Shown: positions 23,440-63,012 of the stretch, piece by piece
Numbering within the stretch: the stretch's first letter is position 1
Layout: each line of letters begins with the position of its first letter
NCBI GenBank assembly: GCA_032718475.1
Contig: JAUCBJ010000144.1
Coordinates: 1 to 64,000 of the forward strand
Direction of reading: 5' to 3'
DNA length: 64,000 nucleotides
From: Nemertoderma westbladi
Taxonomy: Eukaryota; Animalia; Xenacoelomorpha
The notes under the pieces: model-generated
Database searches by the model: none
Told to the model about the DNA's origin: nothing
The model's input: only the letters and a program-made list of their open reading frames with translations
Position numbers and translations under genes: made by a program

Positions 23440-24356
23440 CGCCATTCTTGTTCATAATTGTGGTTGACTATGTTCTACGCATGTCCTTAGATCATCATAA
23501 TGATGATGGGGTGATGGTAACTCCACCTACTGGCTCCAGAAGTCGAGGAAATCCTGCCAAGTACCTAACTTATCTAGACTTTGCTGGTGACGTAGGAGTA
23601 CTCTCAGAATCACTAGAGAGAGCCCAACGGCTCCTCAGCTCATTAGAACATGCTGCTTCTAGTGTTGGTCTTTTTATTAACTCCAAAAAGACCAACATTT
23701 TGACAGTTAACTTTGAAAGTCCTCAACAGGTCTCTGACCGGATGAGCATAAGATCAAAGGATGCTTGAGCATGTGGACGACTTCTGTTACGTGGGGTCAT
23801 GGATCCGGAAGTCCGGCACGGCAAGGACCTTCGAATAGGTAAGGGAAAGGCATCGGAAGCCTTGAATGTTTCCAGGATTTGGAAGTCAGGTAGAATTAAT
23901 CGGAAATTTAAGGTCCGATTATTTAGAGCAGCAGTAGTACCGGTACTCCTCTATGGGAGTCCATGCTGGGCTCTAACTGCTGAGGACACCAAATCTATGG
24001 ATGGCACATTCACAAGAATGCGACGCCGGGTTCATTGTGTCAAGTACAATGCACACAACTCCAACCAGACACTATATAACATTGGAGGTGTCTCATTGGT
24101 TCCCCCAAGCTTGACACTAGAACAAAATTGCCTCCGCTTGGCAGGACTTTGCTTTCGCCGTGAGGACCAGCCAGTGCATAATCTTGTACTTTGGCAGCCT
24201 CATGGAGTGAATAAGCATGGTGGACAGCCCATGACTTTCTTGAGACGCATCTTAAAGGACACTGGCCTTGATGATGCGGATGATCTAGCAAATGTCATGG
24301 GTGATAGGGAGTTGTGGTGGCGCAATTTTGTCGAAAAGCCGGCACAGCATTCTTAA
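23440..24356 (+). mobile_element. 5'-truncated RTE-like LINE with degenerate RT C-terminal half
   Basis: LFIIVVDYVLR...LDFAGDV (F/YADD mutated)...VGLFINSKKT; frameshift near 23760. Confidence 0.85.
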
Positions 24357-24648: not shown

Positions 24649-25469
24649 AACATAAACGATCAGTGTATTGGAATACAAGCTCTTGCTGACATTGTCATTG
24701 TGCATTGGTACCGGTGTCGTACGCCGCAGTATTGTTGATTCAGCATCAGCTCATCAGCAGTTTGCTATCCATTCACCATTGTTGATCCTTACTATATTGG
24801 GTAGATATTTACATTTCTCACGTATTCTATACTACTGGTAGGGCCTAGGTATTAGTAATGAGCTATTGTCTCATGCGTACCGTATCTCAGTATCTGGCCA
24901 CTTTACAGAATAGCACTAGGAATATTCTAGTTGTGAGGCACGGTTAGGGTACCTGCTTACTGTTACAAAGTCAGCGTAACTGTTTTGCGTAAACGGGCCG
25001 GGCCGTGACCGGGACCGCCGATAGGTGAAGGTGAAGCGTGAAGGTGATGGCTCAAACAGGCTCATTTATTGATTTATAATAATTCTGATATGCTGAATTC
25101 ATTAACTAACCATTGAATTGTATATAGTAGTATGACAGTTTCTTTATTGTGTACTAGCTTTAATAAAAAAAAACACTGGCACTGGTAGGCCTATACGAAA
25201 TTTTTTAAGAAAATATCAAACAGTTTACACAGACTACACCATTTAGGCCTAAATAATATATTATTATTTCTTATTATTAATAATACATTATTATTTAAAG
25301 AATGTATTATTGTATACGGTATCATTTTAATACAAATTATTTATTTTGTTCTTGACAGATTTAAATTGGAATAGTATTGACAACTTCGTTATACTGCGAT
25401 ATATCGGTAACAAATTGTTGATTTCTCGTTTATAATTAATGGCCAGAAACTAATTGCGTCCCAGTATCC

Positions 25470-26313
25470 ATGGCTGCCGGATCAATCCAAGTGCCGCTGA
25501 TAATTCCACTCCGCGCCCCGACGCCCGGGCGCTCCAAGTTCCACATCGACACGAACACGGCCATCGAGCTGCGTACCGACTCGTCGGGATGCGACCTGTA
25601 CTACACGGTGGACGGAAGTCGACCGGACCCCTTCTCCAACCTCGGGAAGCGGTGCACCGCCCGATACACTGGGCCCTTCACGCTCCCCGAGGGAAAAATA
25701 GTGGTCAAGGCGATTGCGATAACGTCGGACAACCTGCGGGAGAGCGGGGTGAACACTAAGAAAATGGTGGTGGACTACGAGAAACCAGAGTTTACCATGG
25801 CCGTGGATGACGATAAAGAGTTCCGTAAGGAGGTTGCTAGAGAACGCAAACGTGCGAGTAAGTACAAAGAGCGAGCGAACGAGCATAGAGAGAACTGGAT
25901 GGAGAGAGTGAGTGGTTCGGATAACCGGGTTAGTTACCCTGGAGCGCGGTTCACACAGACGCGACTAGCGGCCTGCGATACTAACTCCACGGTCTCCACT
26001 GTGTCTACTCGACCTCGCCCGAAGGATTACAACGCCATCCAGCGGGCCGCGAGAGACACCGATTTCCTGCACTGTATCTACTGCTACGCGCCCCGACCTG
26101 CGGACCCGTTCTCGAAGTTCTGCGTGGCGTGCGGTTCCGGATTGCCGGCGGTTCCCTCCACCCCGGGGTCCCAGATGGCGCCCCCGGACAGCGGAACCGT
26201 CCGGATGTGTCTCGAGTGTAAGGGGATGGTTCCTAGTAAGGCAATGTATTGTTTGTTCTGCGAAGCACCAATTCAACCCCAGCACCAACCCCAAGCCAGT
26301 ATTAAACTTAAAG
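25470..26313 (+). CDS. DZANK1: DZANK1 coding exon 1
   Basis: MAAGSIQVPLIIPLR...YYTVDGSRP...LPEGKIVVKAIA N-terminus and CxxC zinc ribbons; ends at an AAG|GCAAGT donor. Confidence 0.9.
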
Positions 26314-26639
26314 GCAAGTATCTATATTATGTGCACTACAATAATAATTCCCGAGATATTATTTATTATGATTATAGTATACTTCCTACACATACACAAT
26401 TCAGGTTGGCCACTTTAGATATCAGGATTTTGCACTTTAATAATTTTTTGGTGAAAAATTAATACAGATTTATGGGGAGTTAATATAGTTACTGTTTGTG
26501 TTTACTTGAAATCATTGCCGGCGTATTTGTAAGATTGCACCGTGAATCGTACACTATACAGTGTTTTAGTCTTTATTATGTTCCTATGGCAGGTATTTTC
26601 AATTAAATAAAATGGTGGTAAAATAATAGAGAATATTAT

Positions 26640-32231: not shown

Positions 32232-33039
32232 TAGACTAGATAACTGCCAACGAATTAGCACCCCCACAAAGATGCTGCCATACGGATGGATGGTCGAGCA
32301 TGTATTTCTGGCAAGTTTCAGCTTATGTGAACGGCGAGTTCAAATGAGCGAAGGACTTTCAGACATTTCGCCCTCTAGCGGCAAACTGGAGAACTACACA
32401 CCGAGTATCGTCCCCACAAAAACGCAGGCTGTGTTCTATTACATATCTCACAAGCTTTAGATTGAACCGATCATGAATAACGAAATGAGAAAATGATTTC
32501 ACTATCAGACATTTCACCCTCCGACGGCAGACTGGAGAACTTAGGCCTATTAGCTAGCTTCCTTTGGGGCTAATCAGTCTGAAAAAAGGGAAATAATTTA
32601 TTTATTCATGGCAAAATGAAATAGGAATACAAAATAGTATTGGACCTTCTGCTAATAATGTTCTATCATTATCACTTGTTCCTATGACAATATAAATAAA
32701 TTTTGTACCAACTCTGCTAAACTGTGCCTAACGAAAATGATGTAATTTAAATGATGCCTGAAAATTATCTAAAAATCGGCGGAGGATATTTTTATCTAAA
32801 ATCGAATGGGCGGAGCCGGAGGATATTTGTTTTTTTTTAATATATGGTCAAAGGACCGCTTATTGTATATTATATAAGCATCTAGGTTACTAGGTACCGG
32901 TACCACGGATTAGGCCATGTGTATAGGCCTAATAGCATAGTTCATAAACTGAAAGTAATTCGCTACAAAAGTGTATTTGCCATAACAGTGTCACGCTTCT
33001 TGTTGATATTATAATATGTTTGCAATTTAATTATTTTAG

Positions 33040-34499
33040 GTAAGAGAGTTTGTTTGAACTGCGGTGCCGGGAACCCGTCCAATATGAGTAGCTGCATCGT
33101 CTGCGAGGCGAATCTGCGGGAGCCGACGGAGAGTTCGATCAACCGTGGAAGTTCGGCACCGATCGTTGCAAACCGGGACTCGTTGCTCGTCGGCTGCGTC
33201 AAGTGCGGCCGAGTCAACAACCCGGACGCGCGGTACTGCGACTGGTGCGGCGCGCAGCCACAGGGCCGGCCGGCGCTGCTGAATGAGTGCGGTAAGTGCG
33301 GCGGCCGCAACGGAATAGCGTCGCGGTTCTGTTCCACGTGCGGCGCGTTGCTCGAGCCGCCGGCGCGCATCGATCCCCGTAACAGCGGGTTGACGCTGTC
33401 CCGGGGCGAGCCGATGGCCGAGTCTGTCCGGAAGTATGCCGGCGCGCCGGCTAGTTGGACACCGATATCGTTACCGGTGGGAAAGATAATCGGTAAGAAA
33501 GAAAGCGGGACCCAAACCGTCGGGTTGTTCTATCCGTCGAACAAGGAGTTGGATAAAAGTCGTTTGGTACAGGAGACAAAGAGGATCATAGAGGAGGGAG
33601 TGTCGACCACCTCGAAGAAATGGAACCCGACGGCGGTAAGTCCGGGACGCGGCTACTGGCGGCAACAGATCGAGCACATCTGCGGGAACCTCCGGGCCTA
33701 CACGTCCGGACAGAGCGACTTCCGGGCGGCCATCTCGGAAGGTCGGATGGGCCGGATGCTGAGCGGGAGCGTCCGGGAGGACGGCCACGAGCTCAGCGTC
33801 ACGCTGAACTTCCCATTGCGACAACAGCGGGACGACCCGTTGCGCGGGAAGAATCTCAACGTGACGTCGCAGGGGAAGTTTCTATCGGAGGTTATCGGCT
33901 CGACGCGACATCAGCTGACCACTTCGGACGATTCCGGGACCGAGTTCGAGTCGGTTACCACGGAAACAGAACCGAAAGGTAAGTTTTTAGGAAATAAAAA
34001 GCGTAAGAAGATAAAGAAGAAAGTCTTCGATGTCGATTTGTCTCCAGCAGATCGTCTTCTTCTTAAGGAGGTTGGGGATTCCGGGAGAGGGGACGTGGAG
34101 ACGTTGCGGCAGCTGATAGACGAGGGAGCGGAACCCAACATCCTCGACGAGAAGGGGTTCCCGGCGCTGTTCCTGGCGGTGCGGAACAACCACGTGGACG
34201 CGATCGGGACGCTGGTCTCCGCCGGTGCCGACCTGAAGCGGCGAGCGGGGCCTCGGGGCAACTCGGCGCTGCACGAGGCCGTGTTGTTGGGGCCCGCGGG
34301 GCAGGAAGCCATAGACGCCTTGCTAACCGCCGGGGCCAATACCAAGTGGCGCAACGATAAAGGGGAGACGCCATACGATCTCGCCGTGCAGGGCGGTTAC
34401 GATAGTATCGTTAATATGTTCGCGAGTAACGTAGGGCAACAGCTGCTCGATAAGATAAACAAACCGAAACGAGGATCCATTAGTGTCGACGTTTTCTAG
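33040..34499 (+). CDS. DZANK1: DZANK1 coding exon 2 (zinc ribbons and ankyrin repeats); spliced protein about 767 aa
   Basis: TTTTAG acceptor, phase 1, gives IKLK-G-KRVCLNCGAGNP; TQTVGLFYPS, SPGRGYWRQQ, ankyrin GNSALHEA. Confidence 0.92.
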
Positions 34500-43932: not shown

Positions 43933-46900
43933 CAGTAGGGAACATACCCTTAAATAAGCTCCAAAAGTGGGTTCCTATTTAAGGAAAATGGCTCTTATTT
44001 AGGGGTTTTTGGGCCTTTTTTGGATATTTTTTCGATATAATATGCAATAACTTGTTTCAGGAAAAAATACCGCATAATTTTATTTCACAATGTAAAAGTT
44101 GGGTCTTTCTTGAACATAAAGCAAAAAACCAGAAAACATTTCACCGTCCGGTTTTTTTTCTACAAGCGTTTTAAAATTGCATCAAAAATACGACTAGTTC
44201 CTAAATAAGGGGGATTTTTTAAATTTACCTTATTTAAGATATCGAAATTGTACACATAAATACTAAAAGTCCCTAAATAAGAACTTTTTGACCTGGGTTT
44301 CTTATTTAGGAATACAATTGTATTCCAAAATCTGCACATTCCTTAAATAAAATAAATATTCCTTATTCCTTACAGTATGTGTTACACTTCTTTCATAATT
44401 CTTTGATTTATGTCAGTCTGTATATTGCTAATTGTTGGGATAAGAATAAGGACAATGGTTGCACTGCACTCTATAAATCCTCTATAGAATATCGTATCAT
44501 AATGAAGTTGCTAGCACTGGCATTCTTACCTCACACGGTAGCATAGAATAGCCCATTGATATTCAAAAGAATAGCCCATCGCCCATCTGAGCGCACATAC
44601 ATTGTCACGTATTTCGATGAAACACGACTCAAGTAACTGGACATCGCCGCACAGTTTCGAAAAACTAACTTGTGTCCTGCATTTCCTCTTCTGCTCCGCG
44701 TGACGCCCCACTTAGATGGATTGTCCACAATGTCATGTCAATAGGCACAAAGATGGTTCGGTTGGGCAGCTGATAGACGTTATGAAGGTTAAAGATGATG
44801 ACTGGATGACGTTTTGGCTCAACTGGCTCAGGCAGGAGTGGGACACGTTCGTGGGACCTTTGCGCAGCATGAAGTGAGCAAAGCCTTAGCTAGCCCTAGC
44901 TGATAGGGGCCCCACCCCATTCAGCCATTAACATGTTGTCTTTCGTTAGTCAGAGGTCGTTCAACACAATACTCGTATCCTTAATTTGCCTCATAGCGTT
45001 CGTTTGTTTTTTACCAAACTTCAGATTATTTCAAATCTTTTGACAGACTACATACATACTAAGTTTCGTTTAATTTCATTAAGGAATGACCGAGTTATTA
45101 GCGATAAAAAATTTACAACGACGACAGACAACTCGTTAATGCACCCATATGCTAAGGCTTCGCTCACTTGAACGTGGCTCTCCACCACATTCAATCCGGT
45201 TCGACGCAGTTTGTTGCTCGTTGTTGCTCATTGTTGCTCATTGCTGTTCGTTGTGCTTTATTATTTCTCATTGTTGGTCATTGTTGCTCATTGTTGGTCA
45301 TTGTTGCTCGTTGTTGGTCATTGTTGCTTGTTGGTGCTCATTGTTGCTCGTTAGTTGTACTTTATTATTGCTCGTTGTTGCTCGTTGTACTCTATCTGTC
45401 TATTATTGCTCGTTGTTGCTCATTATTGCTCATTGTTACTCGTTGTTGTACTTTATTATTGGTCGTTCAATCGTTGTTCCTCATTGTTGCTCGTTGTTTC
45501 TCGTTGTTGTACTTTATTATTGCCCATTGTTGCTCGTTGTTGCTCAATATTACTCGTTGTTGCTCGTTCAGTCATTGTTGCTCATTGTTGCTCGTTGTTG
45601 TACTTTATTATTGCTCATTGTTGCTCAATATATCTCGTTGTTGCTTAATATAACTCGTTGTTGCTCGTTCAGTCGTTTTTGCTCATTATTGCTCGTTGTT
45701 TCTCGTTGTTGCTCATTGTTGCTCGTTGTTGTTCTTTATTATTGCTCAGTGTTTCTCATTGTTGCTCGTTGTTGCTCAATGTTACTCGTTGTTATACTTT
45801 ATTATTGCTCAATGTTACTCGTTGTTACTCATTGTCATTGTTGCTCATTGTTACTCGTTCCTCATGTCCTAATTATTGGTCGCTGTTTCTCGTTGTTGTA
45901 CTTTATTATTGCTCATTGTTGCTCGTTGTTTCTCGGTTTTGTACTTTATTATTGCTCATTGTTGCTCAATATATCTCGTTGTTGTTCAATATAACTCGTT
46001 GTTGCTCGTTCAGTCGTTGTTGCTCATTATTGCTCATTGTTGCTCGTTGTTGTTCTTTATTATTGCTCATTGTTGCTCAGTGTTTCTCATTGTTGCTCGT
46101 TGTTGCTCAATGTTACTCGTTGTTATACTTTATTATTGCTCAATGTTACTCGTTGTTACTCATTGTCATTGTTGCTCATTGTTACTCGTTGTTCCTCATG
46201 TCCTCATTATTGGTCGTTGTTTCTCGTTGTTGTACTTTATTATTGCTCATTGTTGCTCGTTGTTTATCGTTGTTGTACTTTATTATTGCTCATTGTTGCT
46301 CGTTGTTTCTCGTTGTTGTACTTTATTATTGCTCGTTCAGTCTATGTTCCTCATTGTTGCTCGCTGTTTCTCGTTGTTGCTCATTGTTGCTCGTTGTTGC
46401 TCATTATTTCTCATTGTTACTCGTTGTTGCTCATTGTTGCTCGTTGTTGTACTTTATTATTGCTCGTTCAGTCGTTATTCCTCATTGTTGCTCACTGTTT
46501 CTCGTTGTTGCTCATTGTTGCTCGTTGTTGTACTTTATTATTACTCATTGTTGCTCGGTGTTTCTCAATGTTGCTCGTTGTTGCTCGTTCAGTCGTTGTT
46601 CCTTATTATTGCTCATTGTTGTTCGTTGTTTCTAGCTGTTGCTCATTGTTGCTCGTTGTTGTACTTTATTATTGCTCATTTTTGCTCGTTGTTGCTCATT
46701 GTTTCTCATTGTTGCTCAATGTTACTCGTCGTAGTCGTAGTTGCTCATTGTTACTCGTTGTTGCTCATTCAGTCGTTTTCCTCATTATTGCTCGTTGTTG
46801 TACTTTATTATTGCTCAATGTTACTCGTTGTTGCTAATTGTTGCTCGTTGTTACTCGTTGTTTTGTTACTCATTGTTCATTCGTTGCTCGTTGTTGCTTA

Positions 46901-47781
46901 TTTTTGGTCATTGTTGCTCGTTGTGCATTTTTGCACCTATCCAATTAAGCTCAGAAGCTCCCTTATCTCTGCATCTTACAATGTCCTGTCAAGGTTAGGC
47001 GGGTAGGAGGTCATAACTGTTATAAGCAGGCAGATAAGGGCAGAAGGAGGACGGGGCTGGGAGACGAGGTTATAAGAGACATAATATAAGGATATTTAAT
47101 TTAATTTATTTAATTTAATATATAAGAAATGAGGCCAGTATTGGTTGACAGAAGGAGATACGCAATGCGTATCCTATTGCGCCTCATAATAGCCTCTCGT
47201 CAACAAGTCAACCCCATAGACTAGCGGCACTGGCTGTTTCAGCTGACGGGGCTCTGTCGAAAACGCGTCCCTGATGCAGTAAGGGCCCTCTTTTGAGGAG
47301 CAATATTATTATTGTCGCGGACCGGAACTGCTTCTACTCTCTGTGAGAAATGAGAAATATTTAATTTATTTAAGGAGTATGCAGATTTTGGAATGAAATT
47401 GTATACCTAAATAAGAAACCCATGTCAAAAAGTTCTTATTTAAGGACTTTTAGTATTTGTGTACAATTTCGATGTCTTAAATAAGGTAAATTTAAAAAAT
47501 CCCTCTTATTTAGGAACTGGTCGTATTTTTGATGCAATTTTAAAACGCTTGTAGAAAAAAAACCGGACGGTGAAATGTTTTCTGGTTTTTTGCATTATGT
47601 TCAAGAAAGAACCAACTTTTATATTGTGAAATAAAATTATGCGGTATTTTTTACTGAAACAAGTTCTTGCATATTATGTCGAAAAAATATCCAAAAAATG
47701 CCCAAAAACCCCTAAATAAGAGCCATTTTCCTTAAATAAGAACCCACTTTTGGAGCTTATTTAAGGGTATGTTCCCTACTG
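43933..47781. mobile_element. Non-autonomous DNA transposon C nested in the MULE, ~420-bp TIRs, CAGT...ACTG ends, 5-bp TSD CCAGA
   Basis: TIRs about 43933-44352 and 47365-47781 starting CAGTAGGGAACATACCC; CCAGA at 43928-43932 and 47782-47786. Confidence 0.9.
45210..46925. repeat. Degenerate 10-bp minisatellite (TTGTTGCTCR)n with higher-order variants
   Basis: Direct reading. Confidence 0.93.
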
Positions 47782-49558: not shown

Positions 49559-49742
49559 TTAAGAATGCTGTGCCGGCTTGTTGACAAAAGTGCGCCTCCA
49601 CAACTCCCTTACACTCTTAATAGTCTTAAAGCCTTATCAGTATCACCCATGACATTTGCTAGATCATCCGCATCTTCAAGGCCAGTGTCCTTTAAGACAG
49701 TAAGAAAGATGCGTCTCAAGAAAGTCATGGGCTGTCCACCAT
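49559..49742 (-). mobile_element. RTE-like LINE 3' end, interrupted by the LTR element
   Basis: Homologous to 24225-24356; continues after 62816. Confidence 0.85.
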
Positions 49743-50972
49743 TGTTCGCGCTTTTGAAGACCTTTAGCAGTTTAACCTGCCAAAATTTATATGTCTTTTA
49801 GTTAATTAAAACCACTTTAGCATACGACAATAATTTATGCTAATACGCAAAACATTAGCCGAAGTCAGCCCATGCGCGATCATTCACCCGATGGATCTAC
49901 ACCCGGGAGACTGAATTCGGATGCTTGAATTGTATTATTACAGTGTAAGGTTGCAGTGTATACCTAATGTATTATTCGATAGATCGTTAATAATTAATCT
50001 CTGACAGATATTATTGGCTTTCGGGAAATATTAACAGTTCCTTTAGGACGTGGCGCTTTATCTATTTAAACAGAACTAAGACTTATACTAAAACGCAACG
50101 ATACTGCTTATGATTAAAGTATAAAGCGTATTCTTTAGGAAATACTTTGTTACCAATCACGATCATACACACTATTCTGCCGACAGTCAGTACATTTGAT
50201 CACACATAAAGAGAGCAGTAATTGACTCACGTAGGGTCTGCTAAATAACATTGGATTCAATACACACCACATTAATATAAATCGCAATTGTTATGTATAG
50301 CCGGTCTCTCTAACCTGTAGTGTTATCAAGAAAATTGGGAATTGGGTGATTTATCCGTATTATCCAAATAGCAATATTTCCATCAACAAATAGGTACAAT
50401 TAATAACTGACGGTAAAATAACAGTACAAGCAATATGATTAATGCATTTAAGATTGATTAAATTGATCGGTAGTTAGTTAGGTAACAGTTTATACTTTCG
50501 ATAATTCAAGCAGTTTACTATAGTTCTTACTAAAAGGCCGGTGTTTCTGGCTTAGACAGCAATAACAACAAAGTATCAAGAAAAAACCGTAAGACTGAAC
50601 ACTCTCCTTATGATCGACTAAAAGCTACACGTCGACAGGAAAAATCGCTCTGATTGGCTCAAGCCAAACAAAGAACCGTGCATCTAATGGCTGTTTCCAT
50701 GTCAGCAACCAGCTGTTAGATGTCGTAATATGAATCATCACGGCTAAGCTGTGAAAGGTAGTTGGTGCATTACAAGTTTTTTGCCTTACCATGTCCACCA
50801 AAACACGTATATAGCAGAATGATTTTTATGTCCGTTAAAACACCTGTAAAGGTACCTTGCGGGCGAGGGGAATATATATACAGTCCGAGAACCCTTTTAG
50901 AGTATTCCAGCGCCTGGGGGGGAACTGGCCAGCAAAGGCAAACGTATCAGTTATCCCACAAAAGCTTTTACA
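49743..50972 (-). repeat. 3' LTR (1230 bp)
   Basis: Direct repeat of 61587-62816; preceded on the minus strand by the purine-rich GGGAGCGG (PPT-like, 50973-50980). Confidence 0.96.
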
Positions 50973-51050
50973 CCGCTCCCAGAAAATGGGATTTAAGTCT
51001 ATAAAATATACAAAATCACAGTTTCTAAAATACAAAAATACTCTAAACAG

Positions 51051-53177
51051 TTAGTCTTTCTTGCGCGGACGGCGTTTACGCAGTTTTTTGAAGCTAGCAA
51101 GAGTCCTTTTCTCTTTGGGGCGAGCCACTTTACTAGGAGGGCTATAACTCCTGGGTGAAGGGTGCAATATGATTGCATCAGAAGGTATGGGATTGCGATC
51201 GGTATATCCGCCGGTCGAAGTACCGGGTTGATTGACATCAACGTCAGGGGAGAGGGGTCTAACGGCTTTGAGAGCTCGTTTCAAGACAGCCGCTCTTACG
51301 GGTCCTTTACGAGTGGTCTGAACGAGGGCCGTGGGTGGACCATAGGCAGTTAGAAACTTCCTTGGTTTAATGGTTCTTTCTAACTCGCGTTCGCGGGCTC
51401 GATACTCGTAAGGCCGTCGATATACTTCTTGTAACTCAGGGTGTGAGTTGACGAATAAGTCTCCATAGGCAGGGTCTTGACGGATAAAGTTTATTAAGTT
51501 GTAAGACTGGATGTCACTCGGATTAATGCTCCTGAGGAATTTGCGTACATATTTGGTTGAAATACATTCTCCAACGCGTTTCAATAGTTCATAACTTGAT
51601 AGGCGCGATTTCTGCTCGACGGAGGCAAACAAATATGGATGGAACGCATAAACTCCTTCGTAGGCGCGTCCAGGATAATAGCGATGGCGTGAATCACAAT
51701 GTAAATCAGCGTTCGCTTCCCAAGCTCTGATATAACGTAGTACAATCATTTCATCTACGCTCTCTAAATCATGGTTGAAGGGACAATCAAAGCTGGCGTG
51801 TCCTTTTAATTGACAATGATGGCATTGAGTCATAAATTGGGGGCAGACGGCAAAAATGTGCAAATTATTAAGCCGACAATATGCACAATAGATTTCCATC
51901 GACGGTTGCTCGTGGAAATAGGAACAAAGATCGTTGGTGTCCATGGACGTAATATGGTCTCTCGATGCGCACAGCCGACAACGTTGTCGAGAAACATAAT
52001 TGGCATGGCGATAATCATACGCAGTAAGACACTGTGGACCTTGATACCATTCCAATATATAGTCGCTATCGCTACTCCGAGCCGTGGGGGGCTGAATCTC
52101 TTCCGATTCTAAACATATGGGTTCGTCTTCCCCTTGTATAGTTGAGGTAGGTATGGCCGTCTCCTCAAGTGGACCTACCGTCTGAATTTCCACGACAGAA
52201 TAACCGGTGGGGATCCGAGGTCTTTGGATAACCGAGGAGTGCAGGTTTATCACACAAATGTCTCGGAAAATAGCGAATCCAGCGCTATCCAACTTCTCCG
52301 CAGCTGAGTCTCTTAAGCTGAGCTTGGTCAAAGCGCGGTCTTTGAATTGGCTATCCACGTTGCGAAACGGGGTTAAAAACCGTCGGAAACATTCAAAGCG
52401 GATGAATTTATTATGTTCATCTAGCTTAGCGAGTTTGGTCCCAAGGATTAATGGATGGGCGCGTATAGTACGACTGCACACATCGGCTAGCCAACCGGAA
52501 AGTGCGGTGTTTTCGAAGATTGTGTAGATAGCTAAGGAGGGACGGAGTGGAACACTCATGAAGCTATACACGGCGCCAGGTGCGGTCAACGGTCCGTCAA
52601 AGTATAATCGAGAATAATGGTCTCCGTATACTTGTTGATAGTTGATGGGATTTCCGACCTTGAAATTCCACCCGTATTCCTGAAAGGCAAGATGTCCGAT
52701 GGAAGTTCGTTGCACCTTTGTAATGTTGCTAGACACATTAGCATACATGGTGCGAAAGAAACCTCGGCCTTCGGCCCAAGGCGCTATCAGCTGAGTATCC
52801 ACGAAAGGATAGGGGATATTCTCCATATTCCGAAAGTCGTTTTGGAGATCTCCATAAACAGCTGAGCCGATTTTAACGATTCTTTCGTTGAATAACATCT
52901 CGAGAACGGGTTGGGGTAACATCGATCCATCGATACCCATGGCCGGTTTGCGTTCGGTGTCAATGACGTAACGCTGCGCGAGTTCGAATTGTCCATGTCG
53001 GAGATTCTTTTGCGTTTCGGTGAGAGTTTCGAAGGAATAATCGATCGCGTCGGAACACGCTCGCGTAAACACGTGAGTGGAGCCAGCTAATCCGCGTATC
53101 AAGCTATCCACAAACGCTTGTAAAGGTAGAGTATATCGCTCTCTAATACCAAGGTCATCTTCTATCAATTCCGTCAT
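51051..53177 (-). CDS. LTR-element ORF2 (708 aa): DEDDy 3'-5' exonuclease-like N-terminal domain, three CCHC-like zinc knuckles, basic tail
   Basis: VIDTE (Exo I), LPQPVLEMLFNERIVKIGSAVYGD (Exo II), PLT...VYSFMS (Exo III-like); CRLC..H..C, CAYC..H..C, CHHCQLKGHASFDC. The ORF is certain; the domain call is from motif recognition only. Confidence 0.65.
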   Translation of the reverse strand: MTELIEDDLGIRERYTLPLQAFVDSLIRGLAGSTHVFTRACSDAIDYSFETLTETQKNLRHGQFELAQRYVIDTERKPAMGIDGSMLPQPVLEMLFNERIVKIGSAVYGDLQNDFRNMENIPYPFVDTQLIAPWAEGRGFFRTMYANVSSNITKVQRTSIGHLAFQEYGWNFKVGNPINYQQVYGDHYSRLYFDGPLTAPGAVYSFMSVPLRPSLAIYTIFENTALSGWLADVCSRTIRAHPLILGTKLAKLDEHNKFIRFECFRRFLTPFRNVDSQFKDRALTKLSLRDSAAEKLDSAGFAIFRDICVINLHSSVIQRPRIPTGYSVVEIQTVGPLEETAIPTSTIQGEDEPICLESEEIQPPTARSSDSDYILEWYQGPQCLTAYDYRHANYVSRQRCRLCASRDHITSMDTNDLCSYFHEQPSMEIYCAYCRLNNLHIFAVCPQFMTQCHHCQLKGHASFDCPFNHDLESVDEMIVLRYIRAWEANADLHCDSRHRYYPGRAYEGVYAFHPYLFASVEQKSRLSSYELLKRVGECISTKYVRKFLRSINPSDIQSYNLINFIRQDPAYGDLFVNSHPELQEVYRRPYEYRARERELERTIKPRKFLTAYGPPTALVQTTRKGPVRAAVLKRALKAVRPLSPDVDVNQPGTSTGGYTDRNPIPSDAIILHPSPRSYSPPSKVARPKEKRTLASFKKLRKRRPRKKD

Positions 53178-53220
53178 ATCTGCTATCTGAGTTTGTTAAT
53201 ATCAATATAAGTTAATATTT

Positions 53221-53376
53221 TAGGCAAGCGGGCGTCGCTGCCTACTCGGCTTTTTGCCCCCGGACAGTGGGTTTCTCAGCGCCGATGTACCGTTGTCGCG
53301 GTGTTTACGCCAACATGTAGCAACAGCACGACAACGATAACCGGCACAAGTCCCACCACTGTCCGTCCCAAAAGCT
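53221..53376 (-). other. Structured RNA element (long hairpin plus small hairpin) just 5' of ORF2
   Basis: Nested complementary arms GGACAGTGG/CCACTGTCC and TATCGTTGTCGTG/CGCGACAACGGTA, whose mismatches are G-U pairs only on the minus strand. Confidence 0.7.
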
Positions 53377-54796
53377 TGAATCCACTTGAGGTTATCTCGG
53401 TAGAGTTAGGGCTACTTTACAATTGCGATTAGCTACTGTAAACACACTTTAGTAGTAACATTCACCTATAAACGCACAAATTCCATACAATCGTTACTTA
53501 CTGCACACATGCATGCCATTTGTCCGTTAGTCAGTGTCTTCCAGAATGTCACGTTATTACTATGTATCCTTGGATACCAATAGTGCGCTATGTATACTCT
53601 TATGCTACGCAATGGGGCAAGCTTTTTATTGTTCCTTTTAACTTGCTTCTAATTCTAGCGTGGGTGTTGCCATGGTGACATTATGGAAAACTAGCGGTAG
53701 AATTAGGGCAATTCTCATGCATACAGATCTGGGATGTTATTTAATAGTAATTCTTTAATTGTCAATATCCTCTTTATGCATGATTTTATAAATTTTATCG
53801 GCTATTGACTATATGTTGGAGATTCTCGCGCTCTAGTACACTCAATATGAATCTCCGCTCCCATGATCTATTAATTACTGGAATTTTGGGAATGTTATAA
53901 ATTGCACAAAATGACAATTTATGAAATTCATTCGAATATGAATTTAAATTTATTCCCGTGAATTTTATTATTTGATGTTAAAATTGACACAATTTGATTC
54001 CAGAGCAGGTCTGGGGACATAGGATCCTTAATTCTATGAAAATTGTCTTTTAAGAGTATCGGTAAGTGCTACGATATCTTAATCGACTAGAATTGTTAAC
54101 GGATCTGAATTTTACAGATTTTAATAAATATTAAATTAATATTTAGGATGGGCACCGATTTATTCCAGAACTTGTCTGGGGACGTTAACCACTGATTCTA
54201 GAATTTGTCTTTCAAGTATATCGGTGGGTGCCACGATATCTTAATCGACTAGAATTACAGATGGTCAAAAGTTTAACAGATTTATTTGCGATTTACGCTA
54301 CTGTTAGAGGGACATCACGCTACTATATGTATTATTTGTTATAAGGTAGAAGAGCAATATCGCACGAAGCAATGTCAGTGTGAAGAGGCAAGTCGTTTCC
54401 AAGGTCTACCCAGAGCTTGGTTTAGCCGAGACACGAGGATCTGAACTTTGCATTCCTAATACTCTGCCTACCAATAATACTTAAATATAGTAGTGGCTTT
54501 ATTGTACTTTAAGAAGTACTGACATGTCATCTTACTATAGTCTCGCATTTATAATATAATACGGACAGTAAGGAAAGAGAAAAGAATTATTTCTCGCCGT
54601 CGCACTAGATATATTATGTAATTACGTAATAAACACTAATATATTGCACTAATCTACTAAATAATCTAAATAACATTCCACTAAATAAAATTAAATAAAA
54701 CGATTATAATAAAGTACATAATAATCCATACCTAAATATAAAATAATAATAAAAAAAATATAAAATAATATAGTCACACACCCACTCCATATATAA

Positions 54797-57700
54797 TTAC
54801 GTTATGGAGTCCCTAGATCTTTGTCGAATTAGGGAAGTGGTCGTAGGAAGAGTATCCTGCCTTCCATGGTTTCCGGACAGTTTTCGGTCTCTTTCCAGTA
54901 AACCTAAGCGACCAGCTGGGCGATTAGGCTGTCGTGTTACTTCCTCCGCTCCCTTGGCCTGTCTAATCTCCTCAGTGGTAAGATGAGGAGGCCATTCATC
55001 TTCTTCTTTACTTAGGGAGTCGGGTCCACCTAACCAGCCGGGAGTATCTATCCTTTCTTGAGGAGTTGCTCTTCTGGAATCGATGTCGGCTGGATTAATC
55101 GTCCCAAGGCAATGTCTCCATTGATCTACATTGGAGTTAATATCGTCATTATCTGAGGAGTATGGTGTTCCCTCAGTTGGATCGTCCACATCACTGCTCT
55201 CCACTTCCCCCTTTACTTGGTATACCTGTTGTTGAGGTAATCTCTCTTTGAGAGTTCTACGGGAAGGGCCAGTGAAGTACCAACCTACTCTAGTTCTTAC
55301 CGCATAAGTTTGTAATGGCTGCGGTTGAGCAGGCCGTTTCTCTAATGGCTCGAGCGCCTCATGCGCGTTTTGGCCGATGAGTATTTGCACTCCAGGATAA
55401 TCGGTTTGGAATCGAGGTATCTCAAGATGTTGGATGCACTCGTCCTCGTCCCAGTTATAAGGTTCTGCTTGAGTAGTAGCAAAGTTCTTTATAGCCACCA
55501 TTTTTACTGACCTTATACCTTGTGTTCCTAACTTATCCTGGGGGGTGGACAACACACCTACATAGTAATCTGCCGTTAGGGTAGATTTCCAAACCTGCAT
55601 AATTCCTGACATATTCAATTTAGTCCGGAACTTGGGTTGTCCAGCAAAGATATCTTCGGCTAGTTCTTGATCGATGAATGTTCCTGTGCTGCCGGAGTCA
55701 AGTAGGGCGTTCACTATGTAACTCTTGTTGGGACCATGAACTCGAACTTGCACTACAGGAAATTCTCTTATTCCTATGTTGGAAGTTGGAACTTTCCAAG
55801 ATGGTTGTTTGTCAAAAGGAGTTGGAGTAAACTCGTCAGTGTCCTTTTCATCCGTAAGTGCTCGATACACTGTGGTATTTATTAGATAACAGGATTCGTT
55901 GGCATCGGAGAATTCGTCTGTATAGAATCCTTCCCACTCAGAACCTTGGTCAGTGTCGTTCACATCACTGAATTGGACATGTAGTTCGGGCTCACTTACC
56001 TGACTCGGGTTGTCTCGTTCGAACTCACTGTGTAACAAAATGTGATGTTTCGCGCCACACTTTGCACACTTTGCGTCAGAGTAACAGGTTCGCCGTTGGT
56101 GTCCTGATCTGAGGCAATTATAGCATAACCGCTTATTCCACAGGACTGTACGTCTGTCTACAGGGGATTTCTTTAGAAATTCAGCACACGCACTCAAACG
56201 GTGAGGCCCGTCGCACAGCGCACATTTTGGTTTGATGTTACTCACCTTAACTTGGTTAACGTTATGCACTCTCGTTCTTTCTTCGGGCTTTCTTCCGTGA
56301 ATTCTCTTAGGAGACGTAGGAGGAGTTGTTGTTACCTGTTCTCTCCTGTCACTGGTTCGAGACTTGTATTTACTTACGTCTTTATAGGTCTTGTTGTCAT
56401 AGTAAGATTTTGCTGTGTCTTTCCCGCTGTCCTCTTCTTGAGAAGCTTGGCTTTCGCCGTCGTCAGTATAACACACTGGTATTATCCTTCTCCTAGAATC
56501 GGGTTTCTCACTTACCTTATTTTCCGATGTTTTCTCTCTGGCCTGCCTTATGAGTTGTAATTTTACTTCACTATCTAAGAAAGACATGAGATCAGCCATG
56601 GTTGGACTTCGTCGTTGTTGTTCATTCATGTACAACACTTTCTTGTCCCAGCGTGTACATACTCCACCCTTTGGTAAAGTAGAGACTACGGCTCCAATAA
56701 CCATGGAACTCTGGTATTCGTGCGACTTACCTAACCAGTCCAGTTGTCTACAGATCTCTTGAATTTCATCGGAAAACTCTATAATCCCACTACTAAGGAA
56801 GTGTCGGGGGGCTACTAATTTTGTATACAAATACTTAGCTATGTTATCTTTGTTACCATACCTGATGTTTAATGTATCCCAAACTTGTTTTAATCCATCT
56901 GGATGTCCAATAAACTTTAACGCCATTAACTTGGGAGGTCCTTCCAAACACTTGATGAGGAATCTAAGTTTCTCTCCGTTGGATAGTACAGAATTCTGTA
57001 TGCTATCTTTGTAATATTCGTTGAAAGGTAACCATTTCATCTCATCTCCATTGAATTTGACGATCTCTCCCACTTTGACCGCTTGGCGGGCTTCTGTTCT
57101 AGCCATCTGACGCGTAAAGCTTTCTTGGGCCATCGTGTTATTTAATATCGAATTATCGGTATATAAATTTCTCGGATCATTATCAGATCTATAGGGAATA
57201 TCATTAATAACAAGTCTATAATCACCCTTAATAGGGTTTGCTATAGGAGTTTCAACTTCACTAGCAGTATAGATGCGTGTAGGCTCTACACCTTGCGCAT
57301 GTAATACTTCAGACCTAACGGGTTGACACAATGTTACAGGGGGCATTGGTATGCCTTTTTGTATATTGACTAATTTGTCGCGTTCTAGCGCGATACTTTG
57401 CTGCACTTCTTGCAACTCTGCTCTACTTTCCCTCACCGTTCCCTTAAGTTGGTGGACAGTCTCCTGCATCTGTCCTAACAGGAGATTCATCCCCCGCCGT
57501 CCCTCTTCCACCCACTCAACCGCCGAAGCGGGAGTCGCCAACATAGTAGCGGGCTGACGCGGGACGACGGGAGACAAATTATTGATTTCTCTCTCTGCTA
57601 TCTGGACAGGGGTATTTGCATGGACTGTTCCACCGGGTACAGGCAGTGTAGTACTATGTAAAGGGAATTTAGAGTTAAGCTCTGGAAGTGTAGGGGTCTC

Positions 57701-59446
57701 TAGCACAGAAGTGACTTTGGGAACTACAGGCCTAATTATTTCAGGTTCATCGACTATAGTAGGGAGTCTTTTGACCTGGATAAATTGTTCTATGGGTTCT
57801 GCACTACCTAAATCTGTGCTAGTTAGCTGTCTTTTAACAGCTGGGGGCAAATCAGGCAATTTGCGACGGTAATATGTTTTTCTACGCCTACTTAGATGAG
57901 ATCTATTTCCTCCGCTGTCAGGATCGGTAGTATCGCCTTCCTCCGAGGATGTGTATCCTTGACGCTTGGGAGTAGATTTTCTCATCATCTGCATTTGATT
58001 AGCAGTAAACTGTTTATTTATACTGTCTTGCGTCTCTTGCAGCTTTTCCAACTCCAATTGGATAGTCGCCTCAGACGCTCTCCGTTCTGCTTCTGCCACT
58101 GTTGCCTTTCTTTCGGCTTCCGCCGTTTTTCTTTCTTCTTCTGCTTCTGCCGCTTTTGCCTTTCTTTCGGCTTCCGCCGCTTTTCTTTCTTCTTCTGCTT
58201 CTGCCGCTTTTGCCTTTCTTTCGGCTTCTGCTTCTTTTCTTTCTGCTTCTGCTTCCGCCGCCGCTGCTGCTGCTACCTTTCTTCTCTCTATCAGTTCTTT
58301 CTTTACTTGTTCTTCTCGGACTCTAATGAGGCGGAGTTTTTCATCACATTCAGCTTGGTTTGCAGCTAACATTTCGGCATCGATTGAGTCCAATATAAGC
58401 TTGGTTCCTTCACTATTAGGGGAAAGTCCATGCAGCCGTCTCCTCAACTCTTCGTCTCCTAGGAATCGCTGATAGTCGGACAAATAAATGTCGATAGCGT
58501 CTCTAGTTCGCGGTTTCTCGGCGGCCTCTTCGCTTTCTGCTTGAGAAAGGGTGACATCAATTTGTTCTTCACAAGTTGATCTCTCAGCCAGCTGGGATTT
58601 CCACGTGGCCGTTTCCTGTACTTTGAGATCTACCCGATGTAGCCAAGTTTTGACAGCAACCTGCAGCGACGTGTCCTGTCTTCTTTTGGAAGTTTCCTCA
58701 AAGGCTGAGAGGATTAGTCGAATGCGTAGGGTTCTTTCACGTACTTGGTATAGCAGCTCTTCCTGCTCTTGAGGTCCTTGAAGTTGTCGAAACAGTTGTT
58801 CTTCCAAGCGCTCCAAGGAGCCGAAGAATCCCTGCACATATCCTGCTGCCGACCTCTTCCAAACAGCTGGATCCATTGTATCTTTTGCCACTCCCATCCT
58901 GTGTATATCTTCCCAAGTAGCCTCGGACATATCAAACGGAAGTCCGAGTCCGGGAAAGTTCCATTGTGATTCAACAATAGATATCAATTCTTCCCTGGCG
59001 TATCCCGCGTAATTATCTTGGGTCGCTCGCTTATTCTTCGCCCAGTCGGCTTGATGTTCCTCCACCGCAATGAATATCGTAGTTAGCACTGCAGCGGGAA
59101 GGGTAAGAAGGGGGTCCGAGTAGACTGTAGCAGCCATCTGCACTCCATGTTCGGGAGTCAGCTCTACAGTATCCGAACTGCTGGAGCTATCGGGTCGCTG
59201 GGAAGTAGGTTCTTGACCAAGATGTTGCTGCGATAAGACAACTGCCTCTTCCCGTTTTACCTGTGCCCGAGTGCCTATGATGGACCTATGGTGGACTAGC
59301 CTAGGGTCTGATACTACTGGAGGGATGACCTTTTTTACAGTAGGAGGTGAGCCGAACTTCTCTCTTATTCGCTCTACACTCCTATCTGAATCACAGATAG
59401 TGGTCTCGATCAGACTGTCCGACAGGTTTTTCTGAGTGTCAGACAT
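54797..59446 (-). CDS. BEL/Pao Gag-protease polyprotein (1549 aa) with vestigial pol tail; no RT or integrase core
   Basis: Capsid-like KFNGDEMKWLPF...KLRFLIKCLEG; triple knuckle CALC..H..C / CYNC..GH..C / CAKCGAKHHILLH; protease ALLDSGS; AVRTRVGWYFTGP. Confidence 0.93.
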   Translation of the reverse strand: MSDTQKNLSDSLIETTICDSDRSVERIREKFGSPPTVKKVIPPVVSDPRLVHHRSIIGTRAQVKREEAVVLSQQHLGQEPTSQRPDSSSSSDTVELTPEHGVQMAATVYSDPLLTLPAAVLTTIFIAVEEHQADWAKNKRATQDNYAGYAREELISIVESQWNFPGLGLPFDMSEATWEDIHRMGVAKDTMDPAVWKRSAAGYVQGFFGSLERLEEQLFRQLQGPQEQEELLYQVRERTLRIRLILSAFEETSKRRQDTSLQVAVKTWLHRVDLKVQETATWKSQLAERSTCEEQIDVTLSQAESEEAAEKPRTRDAIDIYLSDYQRFLGDEELRRRLHGLSPNSEGTKLILDSIDAEMLAANQAECDEKLRLIRVREEQVKKELIERRKVAAAAAAEAEAERKEAEAERKAKAAEAEEERKAAEAERKAKAAEAEEERKTAEAERKATVAEAERRASEATIQLELEKLQETQDSINKQFTANQMQMMRKSTPKRQGYTSSEEGDTTDPDSGGNRSHLSRRRKTYYRRKLPDLPPAVKRQLTSTDLGSAEPIEQFIQVKRLPTIVDEPEIIRPVVPKVTSVLETPTLPELNSKFPLHSTTLPVPGGTVHANTPVQIAEREINNLSPVVPRQPATMLATPASAVEWVEEGRRGMNLLLGQMQETVHQLKGTVRESRAELQEVQQSIALERDKLVNIQKGIPMPPVTLCQPVRSEVLHAQGVEPTRIYTASEVETPIANPIKGDYRLVINDIPYRSDNDPRNLYTDNSILNNTMAQESFTRQMARTEARQAVKVGEIVKFNGDEMKWLPFNEYYKDSIQNSVLSNGEKLRFLIKCLEGPPKLMALKFIGHPDGLKQVWDTLNIRYGNKDNIAKYLYTKLVAPRHFLSSGIIEFSDEIQEICRQLDWLGKSHEYQSSMVIGAVVSTLPKGGVCTRWDKKVLYMNEQQRRSPTMADLMSFLDSEVKLQLIRQAREKTSENKVSEKPDSRRRIIPVCYTDDGESQASQEEDSGKDTAKSYYDNKTYKDVSKYKSRTSDRREQVTTTPPTSPKRIHGRKPEERTRVHNVNQVKVSNIKPKCALCDGPHRLSACAEFLKKSPVDRRTVLWNKRLCYNCLRSGHQRRTCYSDAKCAKCGAKHHILLHSEFERDNPSQVSEPELHVQFSDVNDTDQGSEWEGFYTDEFSDANESCYLINTTVYRALTDEKDTDEFTPTPFDKQPSWKVPTSNIGIREFPVVQVRVHGPNKSYIVNALLDSGSTGTFIDQELAEDIFAGQPKFRTKLNMSGIMQVWKSTLTADYYVGVLSTPQDKLGTQGIRSVKMVAIKNFATTQAEPYNWDEDECIQHLEIPRFQTDYPGVQILIGQNAHEALEPLEKRPAQPQPLQTYAVRTRVGWYFTGPSRRTLKERLPQQQVYQVKGEVESSDVDDPTEGTPYSSDNDDINSNVDQWRHCLGTINPADIDSRRATPQERIDTPGWLGGPDSLSKEEDEWPPHLTTEEIRQAKGAEEVTRQPNRPAGRLGLLERDRKLSGNHGRQDTLPTTTSLIRQRSRDSIT

Positions 59447-61574
59447 GTTTAGTTATATAGTTGAATGCCTACTACTATAGTTTCAGTTAAAGCAAGTCTG
59501 GTAATTCAGTATGACCGCAAGCCTAGCGATTTATTACCGGTACCGTTACTCAGTGGAACGTGATATATATACAATATATTAGAATACCGGTATGCTTATA
59601 ATATATAAGTGTTATTACAGACTAGATGTGTCACAGAGTACCGGTATAATTTTAGCACAAATATAGAAATAAATATAATAAGCCTATGGTAAGTACCGGT
59701 ATGTCAATTATTTTTAGAATAATTGAATTTCTGAATATTTTGGGGTTACTTCGTTACTTTAACTTACTTTATTACCGTTATTTAAGCAGTAGTCCAACTG
59801 ACAGTGAGACCTAGTTGTTGTATGGCAGGCCTACTATTTATAAATCGTTTGAGTTGATTTATAATATTTATATACCCGTTATATGGGTTTTTGTCAATAT
59901 TTGAAATAAATGTTATTATTTCTGGGGGAGTCACTACACAGAAGCTGAACGCCTCTCAGTGAAGTGCTATTTATTTGACACTAAAACTGATAATTCTAAT
60001 TTACCTAAGTTACTTAATACTACAAATTACTTACGATACGGGTGAGATTAATTCTCTAATTAAACACAACAAAATATTACGTACGAAATTTTTAGGGTAA
60101 TTTTACAGGAAGTCTACAAACCAGTCCAACAAAGGGTTAGATTTCTGGCTATTACAAAGGACAGGGTACTACGGTATTTAAATAATAAGTAGTAGTAAAT
60201 ATATTGTACTGTCCAGATAGGAAAATACCACCGCCTGACGACCTATAACCGTATCGCTATAGGTACTACGTTATGTATCACGGATTGTTCCTACCCAGAA
60301 GCTAATAGAGCTAACGAATGTGCCTATCAACCACTTTACAACACAAATATACTGCCTACACTAATTACTTCGGAAGGCACTGTACACTAAACCCTAAATT
60401 AGGTACAAGTACCGGTATAACAAATAATCAGTAGTTAAATATACTTGAACAGTTAAAAGAACCACGGCATCTGCTGGAGTGACCGAAGCACAAAGTCGTC
60501 AGTCTTTACCTACGCCAAGCAGCCCTGATGTAGTACCGGGGTTAGTTTAACTATAACGGTATGTATAACAAGCACAATTACTGTAGGAATAAACTTGGGG
60601 ACATGAATGTTGCGAATAATCGCATAAACTCTGAATAATAAATATTACGCTACCCGTACAGAATACTCAAACAAATACAAACCAAACGCTGGCAGACTAC
60701 TATTAAGCCTAAACAAACTACTGTATGTGCAGATTCTGAAACTGTTAGTTAGTATGCGTTCTAACACGGTAGTACGACTTACTCTTTAAGAGGGGATTGA
60801 CCTTACCGCTTATGGCTGCCCCAACTTACTAACGGCACTTGATCAGACCAACTCTACACACGCAGCAATCCCTTCAGACCTAAAAATAGCTAGACAACAA
60901 TCCAGCCTACAAATATTTGAGTAATAACTATTACGGTACCTGAACAGACCACACAAACAAGCACAGGCTAAAACACTGGCAGACTACGATCAAGCCTAGA
61001 TAAACTACAGTATATGCAGACTCTGAAACTGTTAGTTAGTATGCGTTCTATCACGGTAGTACGACTTACTCTTTAAGAGGGGATTGACCTTACCGCTTAT
61101 GGCTGCCCCAACTTACTAACGGCACTTTATCAGACAAACTCTACACACGCCGTAATCTCTCCAAACCCAACCACAGTCAGACAGCAGCTCAGCCTACAAT
61201 TATCTGAACAATCTGAGCAGACTTACACGTCTTCAGCTCAATATTAACTTACTAGGAAATAAAACTGACAGAAATAAGTAAGCTCCAAAAGAAACAAGGG
61301 GTGTACAGTCCCTAATCTCTTAAACAGCCTACCGGTATACAATAATCAAAATCGAATAATACTAAATGTACTTGTACAGCAGTACCGGTACCGGTGATGA
61401 CAGTTAGGCCTACTGACCTACAAAGTACCGGTTCAGTTTTACCGGTCACTACGGTATTTTGCAACCTTATTGCCTACTGCAATAAGATTATAAACTGTTA
61501 CTGTTCGACAGAACAGTATTAAGCTGTATTTAATGCCTACACTTGCAACCTTATTGCCTACTGCAATAAGATTA

Positions 61575-61586
61575 ATAAACTGTTAC
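61575..61586 (-). other. Non-tRNA primer-binding site (GTAACAGTTTAT), putative self-priming
   Basis: Abuts the 5' LTR CA end; exact reverse complement of minus-strand LTR 62326-62337. Confidence 0.75.
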
Positions 61587-62816
61587 TGTTCGCGCTTTTG
61601 AAGACCTTTAGCAGTTTAACCTGCCAAAATTTATATGTCTTTTAGTTAATTAAAACCACTTTAGCATACGACAATAATTTATGCTAATACGCAAAACATT
61701 AGCCGAAGTCAGCCCATGCGCGATCATTCACCCGATGGATCTACACCCGGGAGACTGAATTCGGATGCTTGAATTGTATTATTACAGTGTAAGGTTGCAG
61801 TGTATACCTAATGTATTATTCGATAGATCGTTAATAATTAATCTCTGACAGATATTATTGGCTTTCGGGAAATATTAACAGTTCCTTTAGGACGTGGCGC
61901 TTTATCTATTTAAACAGAACTAAGACTTATACTAAAACGCAACGATACTGCTTATGATTAAAGTATAAAGCGTATTCTTTAGGAAATACTTTGTTACCAA
62001 TCACGATCATACACACTATTCTGCCGACAGTCAGTACATTTGATCACACATAAAGAGAGCAGTAATTGACTCACGTAGGGTCTGCTAAATAACATTGGAT
62101 TCAATACACACCACATTAATATAAATCGCAATTGTTATGTATAGCCGGTCTCTCTAACCTGTAGTGTTATCAAGAAAATTGGGAATTGGGTGATTTATCC
62201 GTATTATCCAAATAGCAATATTTCCATCAACAAATAGGTACAATTAATAACTGACGGTAAAATAACAGTACAAGCAATATGATTAATGCATTTAAGATTG
62301 ATTAAATTGATCGGTAGTTAGTTAGGTAACAGTTTATACTTTCGATAATTCAAGCAGTTTACTATAGTTCTTACTAAAAGGCCGGTGTTTCTGGCTTAGA
62401 CAGCAATAACAACAAAGTATCAAGAAAAAACCGTAAGACTGAACACTCTCCTTATGATCGACTAAAAGCTACACGTCGACAGGAAAAATCGCTCTGATTG
62501 GCTCAAGCCAAACAAAGAACCGTGCATCTAATGGCTGTTTCCATGTCAGCAACCAGCTGTTAGATGTCGTAATATGAATCATCACGGCTAAGCTGTGAAA
62601 GGTAGTTGGTGCATTACAAGTTTTTTGCCTTACCATGTCCGCCAAAACACGTATATAGCAGAATGATTTTTATGTCCGTTAAAACACCTGTAAAGGTACC
62701 TTGCGGGCGAGGGGAATATATATACAGTCCGAGAACCCTTTTAGAGTATTCCAGCGCCTGGGGGGGAACTGGCCAGCAAAGGCAAACGTATCAGTTATCC
62801 CACAAAAGCTTTTACA
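61587..62816 (-). repeat. 5' LTR (1230 bp)
   Basis: Direct repeat of 49743-50972. Confidence 0.96.
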
Positions 62817-63012
62817 ACCATGCTTATTCACTCCATGAGGTGCACTGGCTGGTCCTCACGGCTTAAAGCGATGTCCTGCAAAGCGGAGGCGGCTTTGTTC
62901 TAGTGTCAAGCTTGGGGGAACCAATGACTGAATGAGACACCTCCAACTCCAATGTTATATAGTGTCTGGTTGGAGATGCAGAGATGTGTGCATTGTACTT
63001 GACACAGTGAAC
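62817..63012 (-). mobile_element. RTE-like LINE fragment, continuation of 49559-49742
   Basis: Homologous to 24030-24220, with small insertions and a deletion. Confidence 0.85.

Follow-up and report, generated by a model that had tools for sequence, protein, structure and literature searches.

High-copy LTR elements without reverse transcriptase (RT) and integrase are known from wheat, namely RLG_Sabrina_SA/WHAM (with RLG_Wilma) and RLG_Quinta (with RLG_Cereba). According to the excerpts of PMC9744471 and PMC11302176 that deal with them, Sabrina_SA retains GAG-Pro and Quinta retains GAG, and an autonomous partner is proposed to mobilise them, while they are proposed to supply Gag. The plant TR-GAG elements are grouped here with satellites of the same semi-autonomous type. 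In the mouse, the IAP 1-delta-1 element harbors an internal deletion that results in an in-frame gag-pol fusion; passages of PMC6466679 describe it as non-autonomous and as the source of most new insertions, with a fusion protein that aids in cis (citing Saito 2008).

Two further systems concern cargo and priming. In the bdelloid rotifer elements Juno and Vesta, a DEDDy-type exonuclease occupies the ORF3 slot of an LTR element, and the non-autonomous TelKA2n has lost most of pol and kept ORF3 (sections of PMC5408684). In the Tf1/sushi group, as well as in Tcn1 and the plant TAR/Houba elements, the initial 11 nt of the RNA anneal to the primer site, and cleavage by RNase H then yields the primer (sections of PMC7175516 and PMC6317226). 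The Belpaoviridae are instead primed by tRNA-Arg or tRNA-Gly at an 18-nt site, and have LTRs of 0.2-1.2 kb and genomes of 4.2-10 kb (ICTV profile, PMC8742986).

We analysed a BEL-derived element within a window of 64,000 nucleotides, the whole stretch of DNA under study. The element is probably a semi-autonomous Gag-Pro satellite of BEL/Pao origin that would borrow its Pol from an intact relative. Its more unusual features, a second ORF (ORF2) and a self-complementary primer site, were both absent from an earlier sequence-only reading of this DNA.

Anatomy and insertion of the element

The element spans positions 49743-62816 (13,074 bp) and, in its own sense, is laid out as 5' LTR, 2.1-kb leader, ORF1, 1.6-kb spacer, ORF2, and 3' LTR (Table 1). 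The two LTRs differ by one mismatch in 1230 bp (99.92% identity), and ACCAT duplicates flank them. The element is recently inserted, in agreement with the recent movement claimed from the sequence alone. The likely polypurine tract has 8 nt including one pyrimidine, compared with about 10 nt as a Belpaoviridae feature. A 287-bp tandem duplication, with copies about 86% identical, occupies 60632-61207 in the leader. A tblastn search with six intact BEL polyproteins as queries found neither RT nor integrase anywhere in the window.

Table 1. Features of the BEL-derived element, with positions in the window
Feature	Positions	Strand	Remarks
5' LTR	61587..62816	-	1230 bp, TGT...ACA
Candidate self-primer, LTR nt 480-491	62326..62337	-	12-nt complement
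Candidate primer-binding site	61575..61586	-	abuts 5' LTR; no TGG; perfect complement of LTR nt 480-491
Second LTR end and primer site (13-nt complement), with hairpin	61459..61507	-	about 85 nt downstream
ORF1, 1549 aa	54797..59446	-	long N-terminal region; coiled-coil repeats; Gag of BEL type; zinc knuckles; protease; vestiges of pol
DUF1759 (BEL/Pao Gag-associated)	56669..57055	-	E 2.7e-12, 47.3 bits vs cut-off 25.4
Gag zinc knuckles	56000..56227	-	33-46% identity to intact BEL elements
Aspartic protease	55268..55756	-	motifs: DSG (catalytic), ILIG, post-protease; Asp_protease_2 at E 0.014, short of the cut-off
Acidic low-complexity linker with junction 1	55136..55243	-	RT and most of RNase H lost, about 515 aa
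RNase H C-terminal vestige, W..NPAD..SR..W..GP..WP	54968..55138	-	~55 aa; 39-49% identity over about 50 aa
Interval with junction 2	54923..54970	-	integrase lost, about 480 aa
Integrase C-terminal tail motif RPAGRLGLLE	54893..54922	-	10 aa; shuffle test
ORF2, 708 aa	51051..53177	-	env-like slot
ORF2, likely DEDDy exonuclease-like N-terminal domain	about 53060-52450	-	
ORF2, CCHC knuckles	about 51980-51770	-	then basic C-terminus
Likely PPT, short purine-rich tract GGGAGCGG	50973..50980	-	adjoins 3' LTR
3' LTR	49743..50972	-	1230 bp
TSD ACCAT	62817..62821 and 49738-49742	.	5 bp

Public contigs carrying all or part of the queried stretch were listed for seven runs from four studies, and the best match may be the source of the window itself. 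Four runs were compared: three samples of organism A (one species) and one of organism B (a second species). An empty-site form is seen in runs X1 and X5, where loose ends at 49742 continue into the right-hand flank. The insertion target is a dispersed repeat, with copies in the window at 49559-49742, 5138-5629, and 23869-24356; because the target itself is repeated, the empty sites may represent paralogues rather than alleles.

Several other features lie elsewhere in the window. An uninterrupted 610-aa AMP-binding enzyme ORF (6491-8323, plus strand; PF00501 at E 1e-59, PF13193) could be, in this eukaryote-like window, a retrocopy or a horizontally acquired gene. Two more long single ORFs are found on the plus strand, one with a double zinc ribbon and ankyrin repeats (33015-34499) and one with Fn3-associated and double zinc ribbon domains (25440-26462). 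A 19-bp tandem satellite with more than 100 in-register copies and a strong GC skew runs from 36703 onward. Positions 43933-47781 contain 324-nt inverted arms that are 97% complementary and separated by 3.2 kb; they may belong to a foldback element or a DNA transposon.

Gag-protease, pol remnants, and copies of the family

ORF1 is open from the ATG at 59446 to the stop at 54797, so the claimed fusion of Gag-protease to pol vestiges in one unbroken frame of 1549 codons holds. It carries the BEL-type Gag and protease expected of Belpaoviridae, and its protease motifs are intact. A protein homologue search resulted in 14 matches, all of them distant BEL elements and most with BEL-type pol Pfam domains; the nearest relatives of the Gag-protease region share about 22% identity along their length. 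As a separate observation, about 800 aa precede DUF1759 in the ORF1 Gag (59446-57100) compared with about 200 in the nearest intact elements, and the domain searches placed this long stretch in no family. Within this region, five 27-nt repeats at 58085-58261 encode a coiled-coil stretch of A, E, K, and R; joints in other copies fall there, and the number of repeats is likely variable.

For the region behind the protease, a tail profile was built from 10 of these BEL polyproteins, from the post-protease motif onward. The ORF1 tail aligned to it in two pieces only. One is the post-protease motif, at profile positions 9-58 with 9.4 bits; the other, at 607-662 with 38.5 bits, is the RNase H C-terminus, with an E-value of 1.5e-14 as a figure for that single comparison. 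The tail can be aligned to BEL pol, and the RNase H signature read from the sequence alone is confirmed. In the P0001 numbering of ORF1, where the Met is residue 3, the motifs start at aa 1384 (AVRTRVGW), 1444 (QWRHCLG), 1453 (NPAD), 1472 (GWLGGP), 1486 (EWP), and 1511 (RPAGRLGLLE). The last of these, read earlier as the polyprotein-terminal RP..KL..LE motif, is the top-scoring window of the entire ORF1 protein (22.0, with the runner-up at 8.4), and its score was reached in none of 2000 shuffles of the 63-aa tail.

The spacing of these motifs reveals two losses. From the post-protease motif to NPAD there are 66 aa in ORF1 versus 560-601 aa in seven of seven references, and from NPAD to the tail motif 58 aa versus 515-580 aa in five of five. 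None of the 33 measurable BEL loci (76 fetched) has a short post-protease-to-NPAD spacing. In place of the PR-RT-RH-IN order of a Belpaoviridae Pol, ORF1 presents an RNase H end of ~55 aa and a 10-aa tail, in the expected order. A 55-aa RNase H end is insufficient to form an RNase H domain, and for this reason we read the vestige as a leftover. Of 19 conserved columns it retains 14, a number also found among intact elements (range 13-17). Its 51.7 bits compare with at least 51.8 in all 43 held-out intact segments (median 80), a comparison biased against the vestige since a motif served to select the segments, which represent other clades.

The sequence-only reading had proposed at least two frame-preserving deletions. 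The two in-frame losses stand, and either DNA deletion or a spliced RNA could account for them. The chance that two deletions both stay in frame is 1 in 9, so selection need not be invoked. A spliced origin would make the element a reverse-transcribed subgenomic RNA of a helper, mobile in trans, with pol excised in the form of two introns and the RNase H remnant surviving as an exon. Copia makes spliced gag RNA; we infer that single-ORF BEL elements need some route to excess Gag, and the kept frame at both losses, with Gag-protease joined to the natural stop region, is what a gag-boosting splice would produce. However, the 35-aa acidic linker at junction 1 is unlike any reference, and two introns are required for the retained internal island. 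We regard splicing as quite unlikely.

The public contigs place the element in a diverged multi-copy family. All 30 bins of the queried stretch were covered in four of four runs, by records whose similarity ranged from 99+ to under 90%, and within ORF1 and ORF2 there were pieces of about 80% similarity. The read tables give the best-supported rows, their depths are not copy numbers, and the loose ends of X1 are partly uncounted. Among the best-supported 12 of 187 indels, all ten of frameshift size fall outside the ORFs (p 2.6e-4, the ORFs being 56% of the queried stretch), and the two within ORF1 are of 3 nt each. Among the best-supported 40 of 1792 differences, 10 of 20 in ORF1 (p 0.032) and 7 of 10 in ORF2 (p 0.008) are synonymous versus 28% expected, and none creates a stop; these are selected rows, mostly sites at which the window departs from most records. 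The capsid-to-protease part of ORF1 (aa 881-1291) has six synonymous differences among the seven listed, and the ORF1 tail has one synonymous and four non-synonymous among five. These patterns are signs of purifying selection on Gag-protease and, more generally, of selection on both ORF1 and ORF2.

The placement of record ends bears on when pol was lost. No end or joint occurs at either junction among the best-supported 15 of 103 joints and 24 of 2472 loose ends (6 displayed per run, 4 runs). The share of aligned records that run on unlike the window is 1-6% in the three runs giving this figure. Since an intact majority should leave loose ends at the junctions, their absence there among the displayed rows indirectly favours a pol-less majority across the family.

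If the family were instead mainly autonomous, pol would have been lost by this copy or a small recent branch around the time of insertion, and the selection would be that of its intact parent. Consistent with such a recent loss, the displayed rows contain no bridging contig, the identity of the vestige to distant BEL elements remains near 40%, and both differences listed within the RNase H vestige are sites where the window departs from most records, which would also fit many records there deriving from intact copies. However, an intact majority predicts deep loose ends at four breakpoints, and 0 of the 24 displayed (of 2472) are found there; two large post-insertion deletions are unlikely given one mismatch in 1230 bp of LTR, and each of the 43 intact segments outscores the vestige. 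Recent loss is, on this evidence, unlikely.

An assembly artefact, in which an intact element had collapsed into the fused ORF, would be in keeping with the frequent misassembly of high-copy repeats and with the lack of a bridging read among the displayed rows. Such a collapse is hardly credible for a window without N, with an unbroken frame, two separate junctions, and gap-free cover in all four runs, and with no loose ends at the junctions among the 24 displayed of 2472.

Taken with the multi-copy family, the signs of purifying selection on Gag-protease and the displayed joints and ends lying off the junctions, the satellite with its own capsid proposed earlier is the favoured reading. The helper that it calls for did not turn up: neither a helper nor a close relative was present among the protein homologues, or in metagenome and viral contigs scanned for loci with Gag stretches. 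In the satellite model, the satellite RNA would be translated into Gag-protease, which would build and mature the particle. The RT/RNase H and integrase of a helper polyprotein would be co-packaged, and would copy and integrate the satellite RNA. What is left of pol, in two pieces, is probably decaying sequence stranded between the endpoints of the deletions.

ORF2 and the candidate primer site

Pfam assigned ORF2 a weak zinc knuckle only, with no exonuclease match, and a PDB search with ORF2 alone returned nothing. A language-model search with residues 60-330 retrieved 3'-5' exonuclease clusters (0.91-0.92), and the best family matches agree in 10 of 10 cases. Word-index searches gave no match to ORF2; a full-library search resulted in two relatives, P0017 and P0018 (E 8.9e-7 and 2.7e-4), which match it in the same two regions. 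Both are ENA proteins on contigs of 9-11 kb, with the same exonuclease-like and zinc-knuckle layout as ORF2. P0017 by itself weakly matches PF01612 (E 0.2), and their joint profile picks up nucleocapsid knuckles of retroviruses (E 7e-4) and gives a weak match to EXD2 (E 2.6). ORF2, P0017, and P0018 had no match in the 76 BEL loci, and locus scans with A2 (viral contigs) and with P0018 gave none either.

DEDDy exonucleases carry the motifs ExoI (DxE), ExoII (D), and ExoIII (Y..D/E). In a shallow alignment of the three sequences, three of the four catalytic positions of ORF2 look acidic and the first aligns with Ser. A by-eye placing of ExoI at IDTE was ruled out by the alignment. Two structure models had a mean pLDDT of about 31. 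ORF2 likely combines a DEDDy 3'-5' exonuclease-like domain with nucleocapsid-like zinc knuckles. Its product is likely an accessory protein that derives from an exonuclease, binds RNA and is under selection, and its catalytic activity may be impaired.

Selection on both ORFs would also suit a host-tolerated or domesticated cassette of Gag-protease and nuclease for which mobility is dispensable and which hinders intact BEL elements; the DEDD-derived EXD1 and Maelstrom act in piRNA pathways, as passages of PMC5408684 report. Ongoing mobility is indicated instead by the close identity of the LTRs, the fresh TSD, the empty sites in other records, and the many diverged copies, and we consider domestication highly improbable.

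The primer site was compared with control BEL loci. At offset 0 behind the 5' LTR, the complement to the LTR is 12 nt long, a length equalled at 2 of 10474 internal positions; six control loci have complements of 4-7 nt, over shorter targets (232-857 nt). The first TGG lies 300 nt past the 5' LTR, versus 6-36 nt in six of six control loci with a defined LTR end, and by this measure no tRNA-Arg/Gly-type primer site is found. A TATA-like word was located by eye about 29 nt upstream of the candidate self-primer, whose match itself overlaps a TATAAA. When a long fold is computed, the LTR and the primer site pair with a probability of only about 0.4. The second primer-site copy is missing from some family copies (joint 61437-61534).

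The primer site does not look tRNA-type, and self-priming is possible, as judged from a single element. Priming requires that the 3' end of the primer lie at the LTR boundary, which the candidate geometry would provide. In this scheme, the 5' end of the RNA itself (LTR nt 480-491), paired just past the LTR, is predicted to start reverse transcription in a Tf1-like manner, and the RNase H freeing the self-primer would need to act in trans. A bolder reading, which we put forward tentatively and judge rather doubtful, is that a BEL/Pao lineage swapped tRNA priming for Tf1-like self-priming and split into two partners: a high-copy satellite that provides Gag and protease together with an RNA-binding protein of exonuclease origin, and a less abundant helper that provides RT, RNase H, and integrase.

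Comparison with described elements

The element shares with Belpaoviridae (Semotivirus; BEL/Pao) a BEL-type Gag, a protease, an RNase H C-terminus, and an integrase tail, in BEL order and in one ORF. In contrast to that family, it has no RT or integrase and no tRNA-type primer site was found; its LTR of 1.23 kb is at the size limit, its total of 13.07 kb exceeds the range, and its extra ORF is not env-like. We file it as BEL-derived and not as an autonomous member of Belpaoviridae.

Repeat databases list non-autonomous BEL entries. No case of BEL self-priming, of an exonuclease ORF in a BEL element, or of a BEL Gag-protease satellite was found among the papers searched; the sections read of PMC3118150, PMC6317226, and PMC3601003 contain no such BEL case.

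With intact gag-pro, LTRs, and a TSD, and with RT and integrase absent, the element has the make-up of a satellite. In the accounts excerpted above, the wheat Sabrina_SA and Quinta resemble it in keeping Gag (or Gag-Pro) and lacking RT and integrase. These wheat elements are plant Gypsy members with proposed partners, and the Sabrina/WHAM/Wilma group has a tRNA-Asp primer site, whereas the present element derives from an animal BEL lineage, retains pol remnants in frame, and carries a nuclease-like ORF, and the searches turned up no helper for it. The mouse IAP 1-delta-1, as far as the passages describe it, is a retrovirus with one 1.9-kb deletion that includes part of gag; the BEL element has whole Gag and protease, and two missing stretches of about 1.5 kb each. 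A clean animal BEL satellite would open the questions of how single-ORF elements obtain excess Gag and whether the partners cooperate.

Juno and Vesta belong to other LTR lineages and their catalytic residues are reported, in the sections concerned, as intact (DEED), whereas ORF2 resides in a BEL-derived host, carries zinc knuckles after the domain, and has Ser aligned with the first acidic position. In TelKA2n, according to the same sections, part of gag is missing as well and the ORF3 resembles env. A DEDDy-like cargo under selection in BEL would widen the rotifer observation and would be a candidate for RNA processing or anti-silencing.

Like Tf1, the BEL element has LTR nucleotides, here 12, that complement a site right past the LTR. 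Tf1-type self-priming is described, in the sections consulted for it, in Gypsy and Copia lineages, and self-priming in BEL/Pao, if true, would extend the mechanism to a third superfamily. Gag-Pro satellites as such are already known from plants and mice; what is new here is the BEL host, the nuclease-like cargo, and the possible self-priming.
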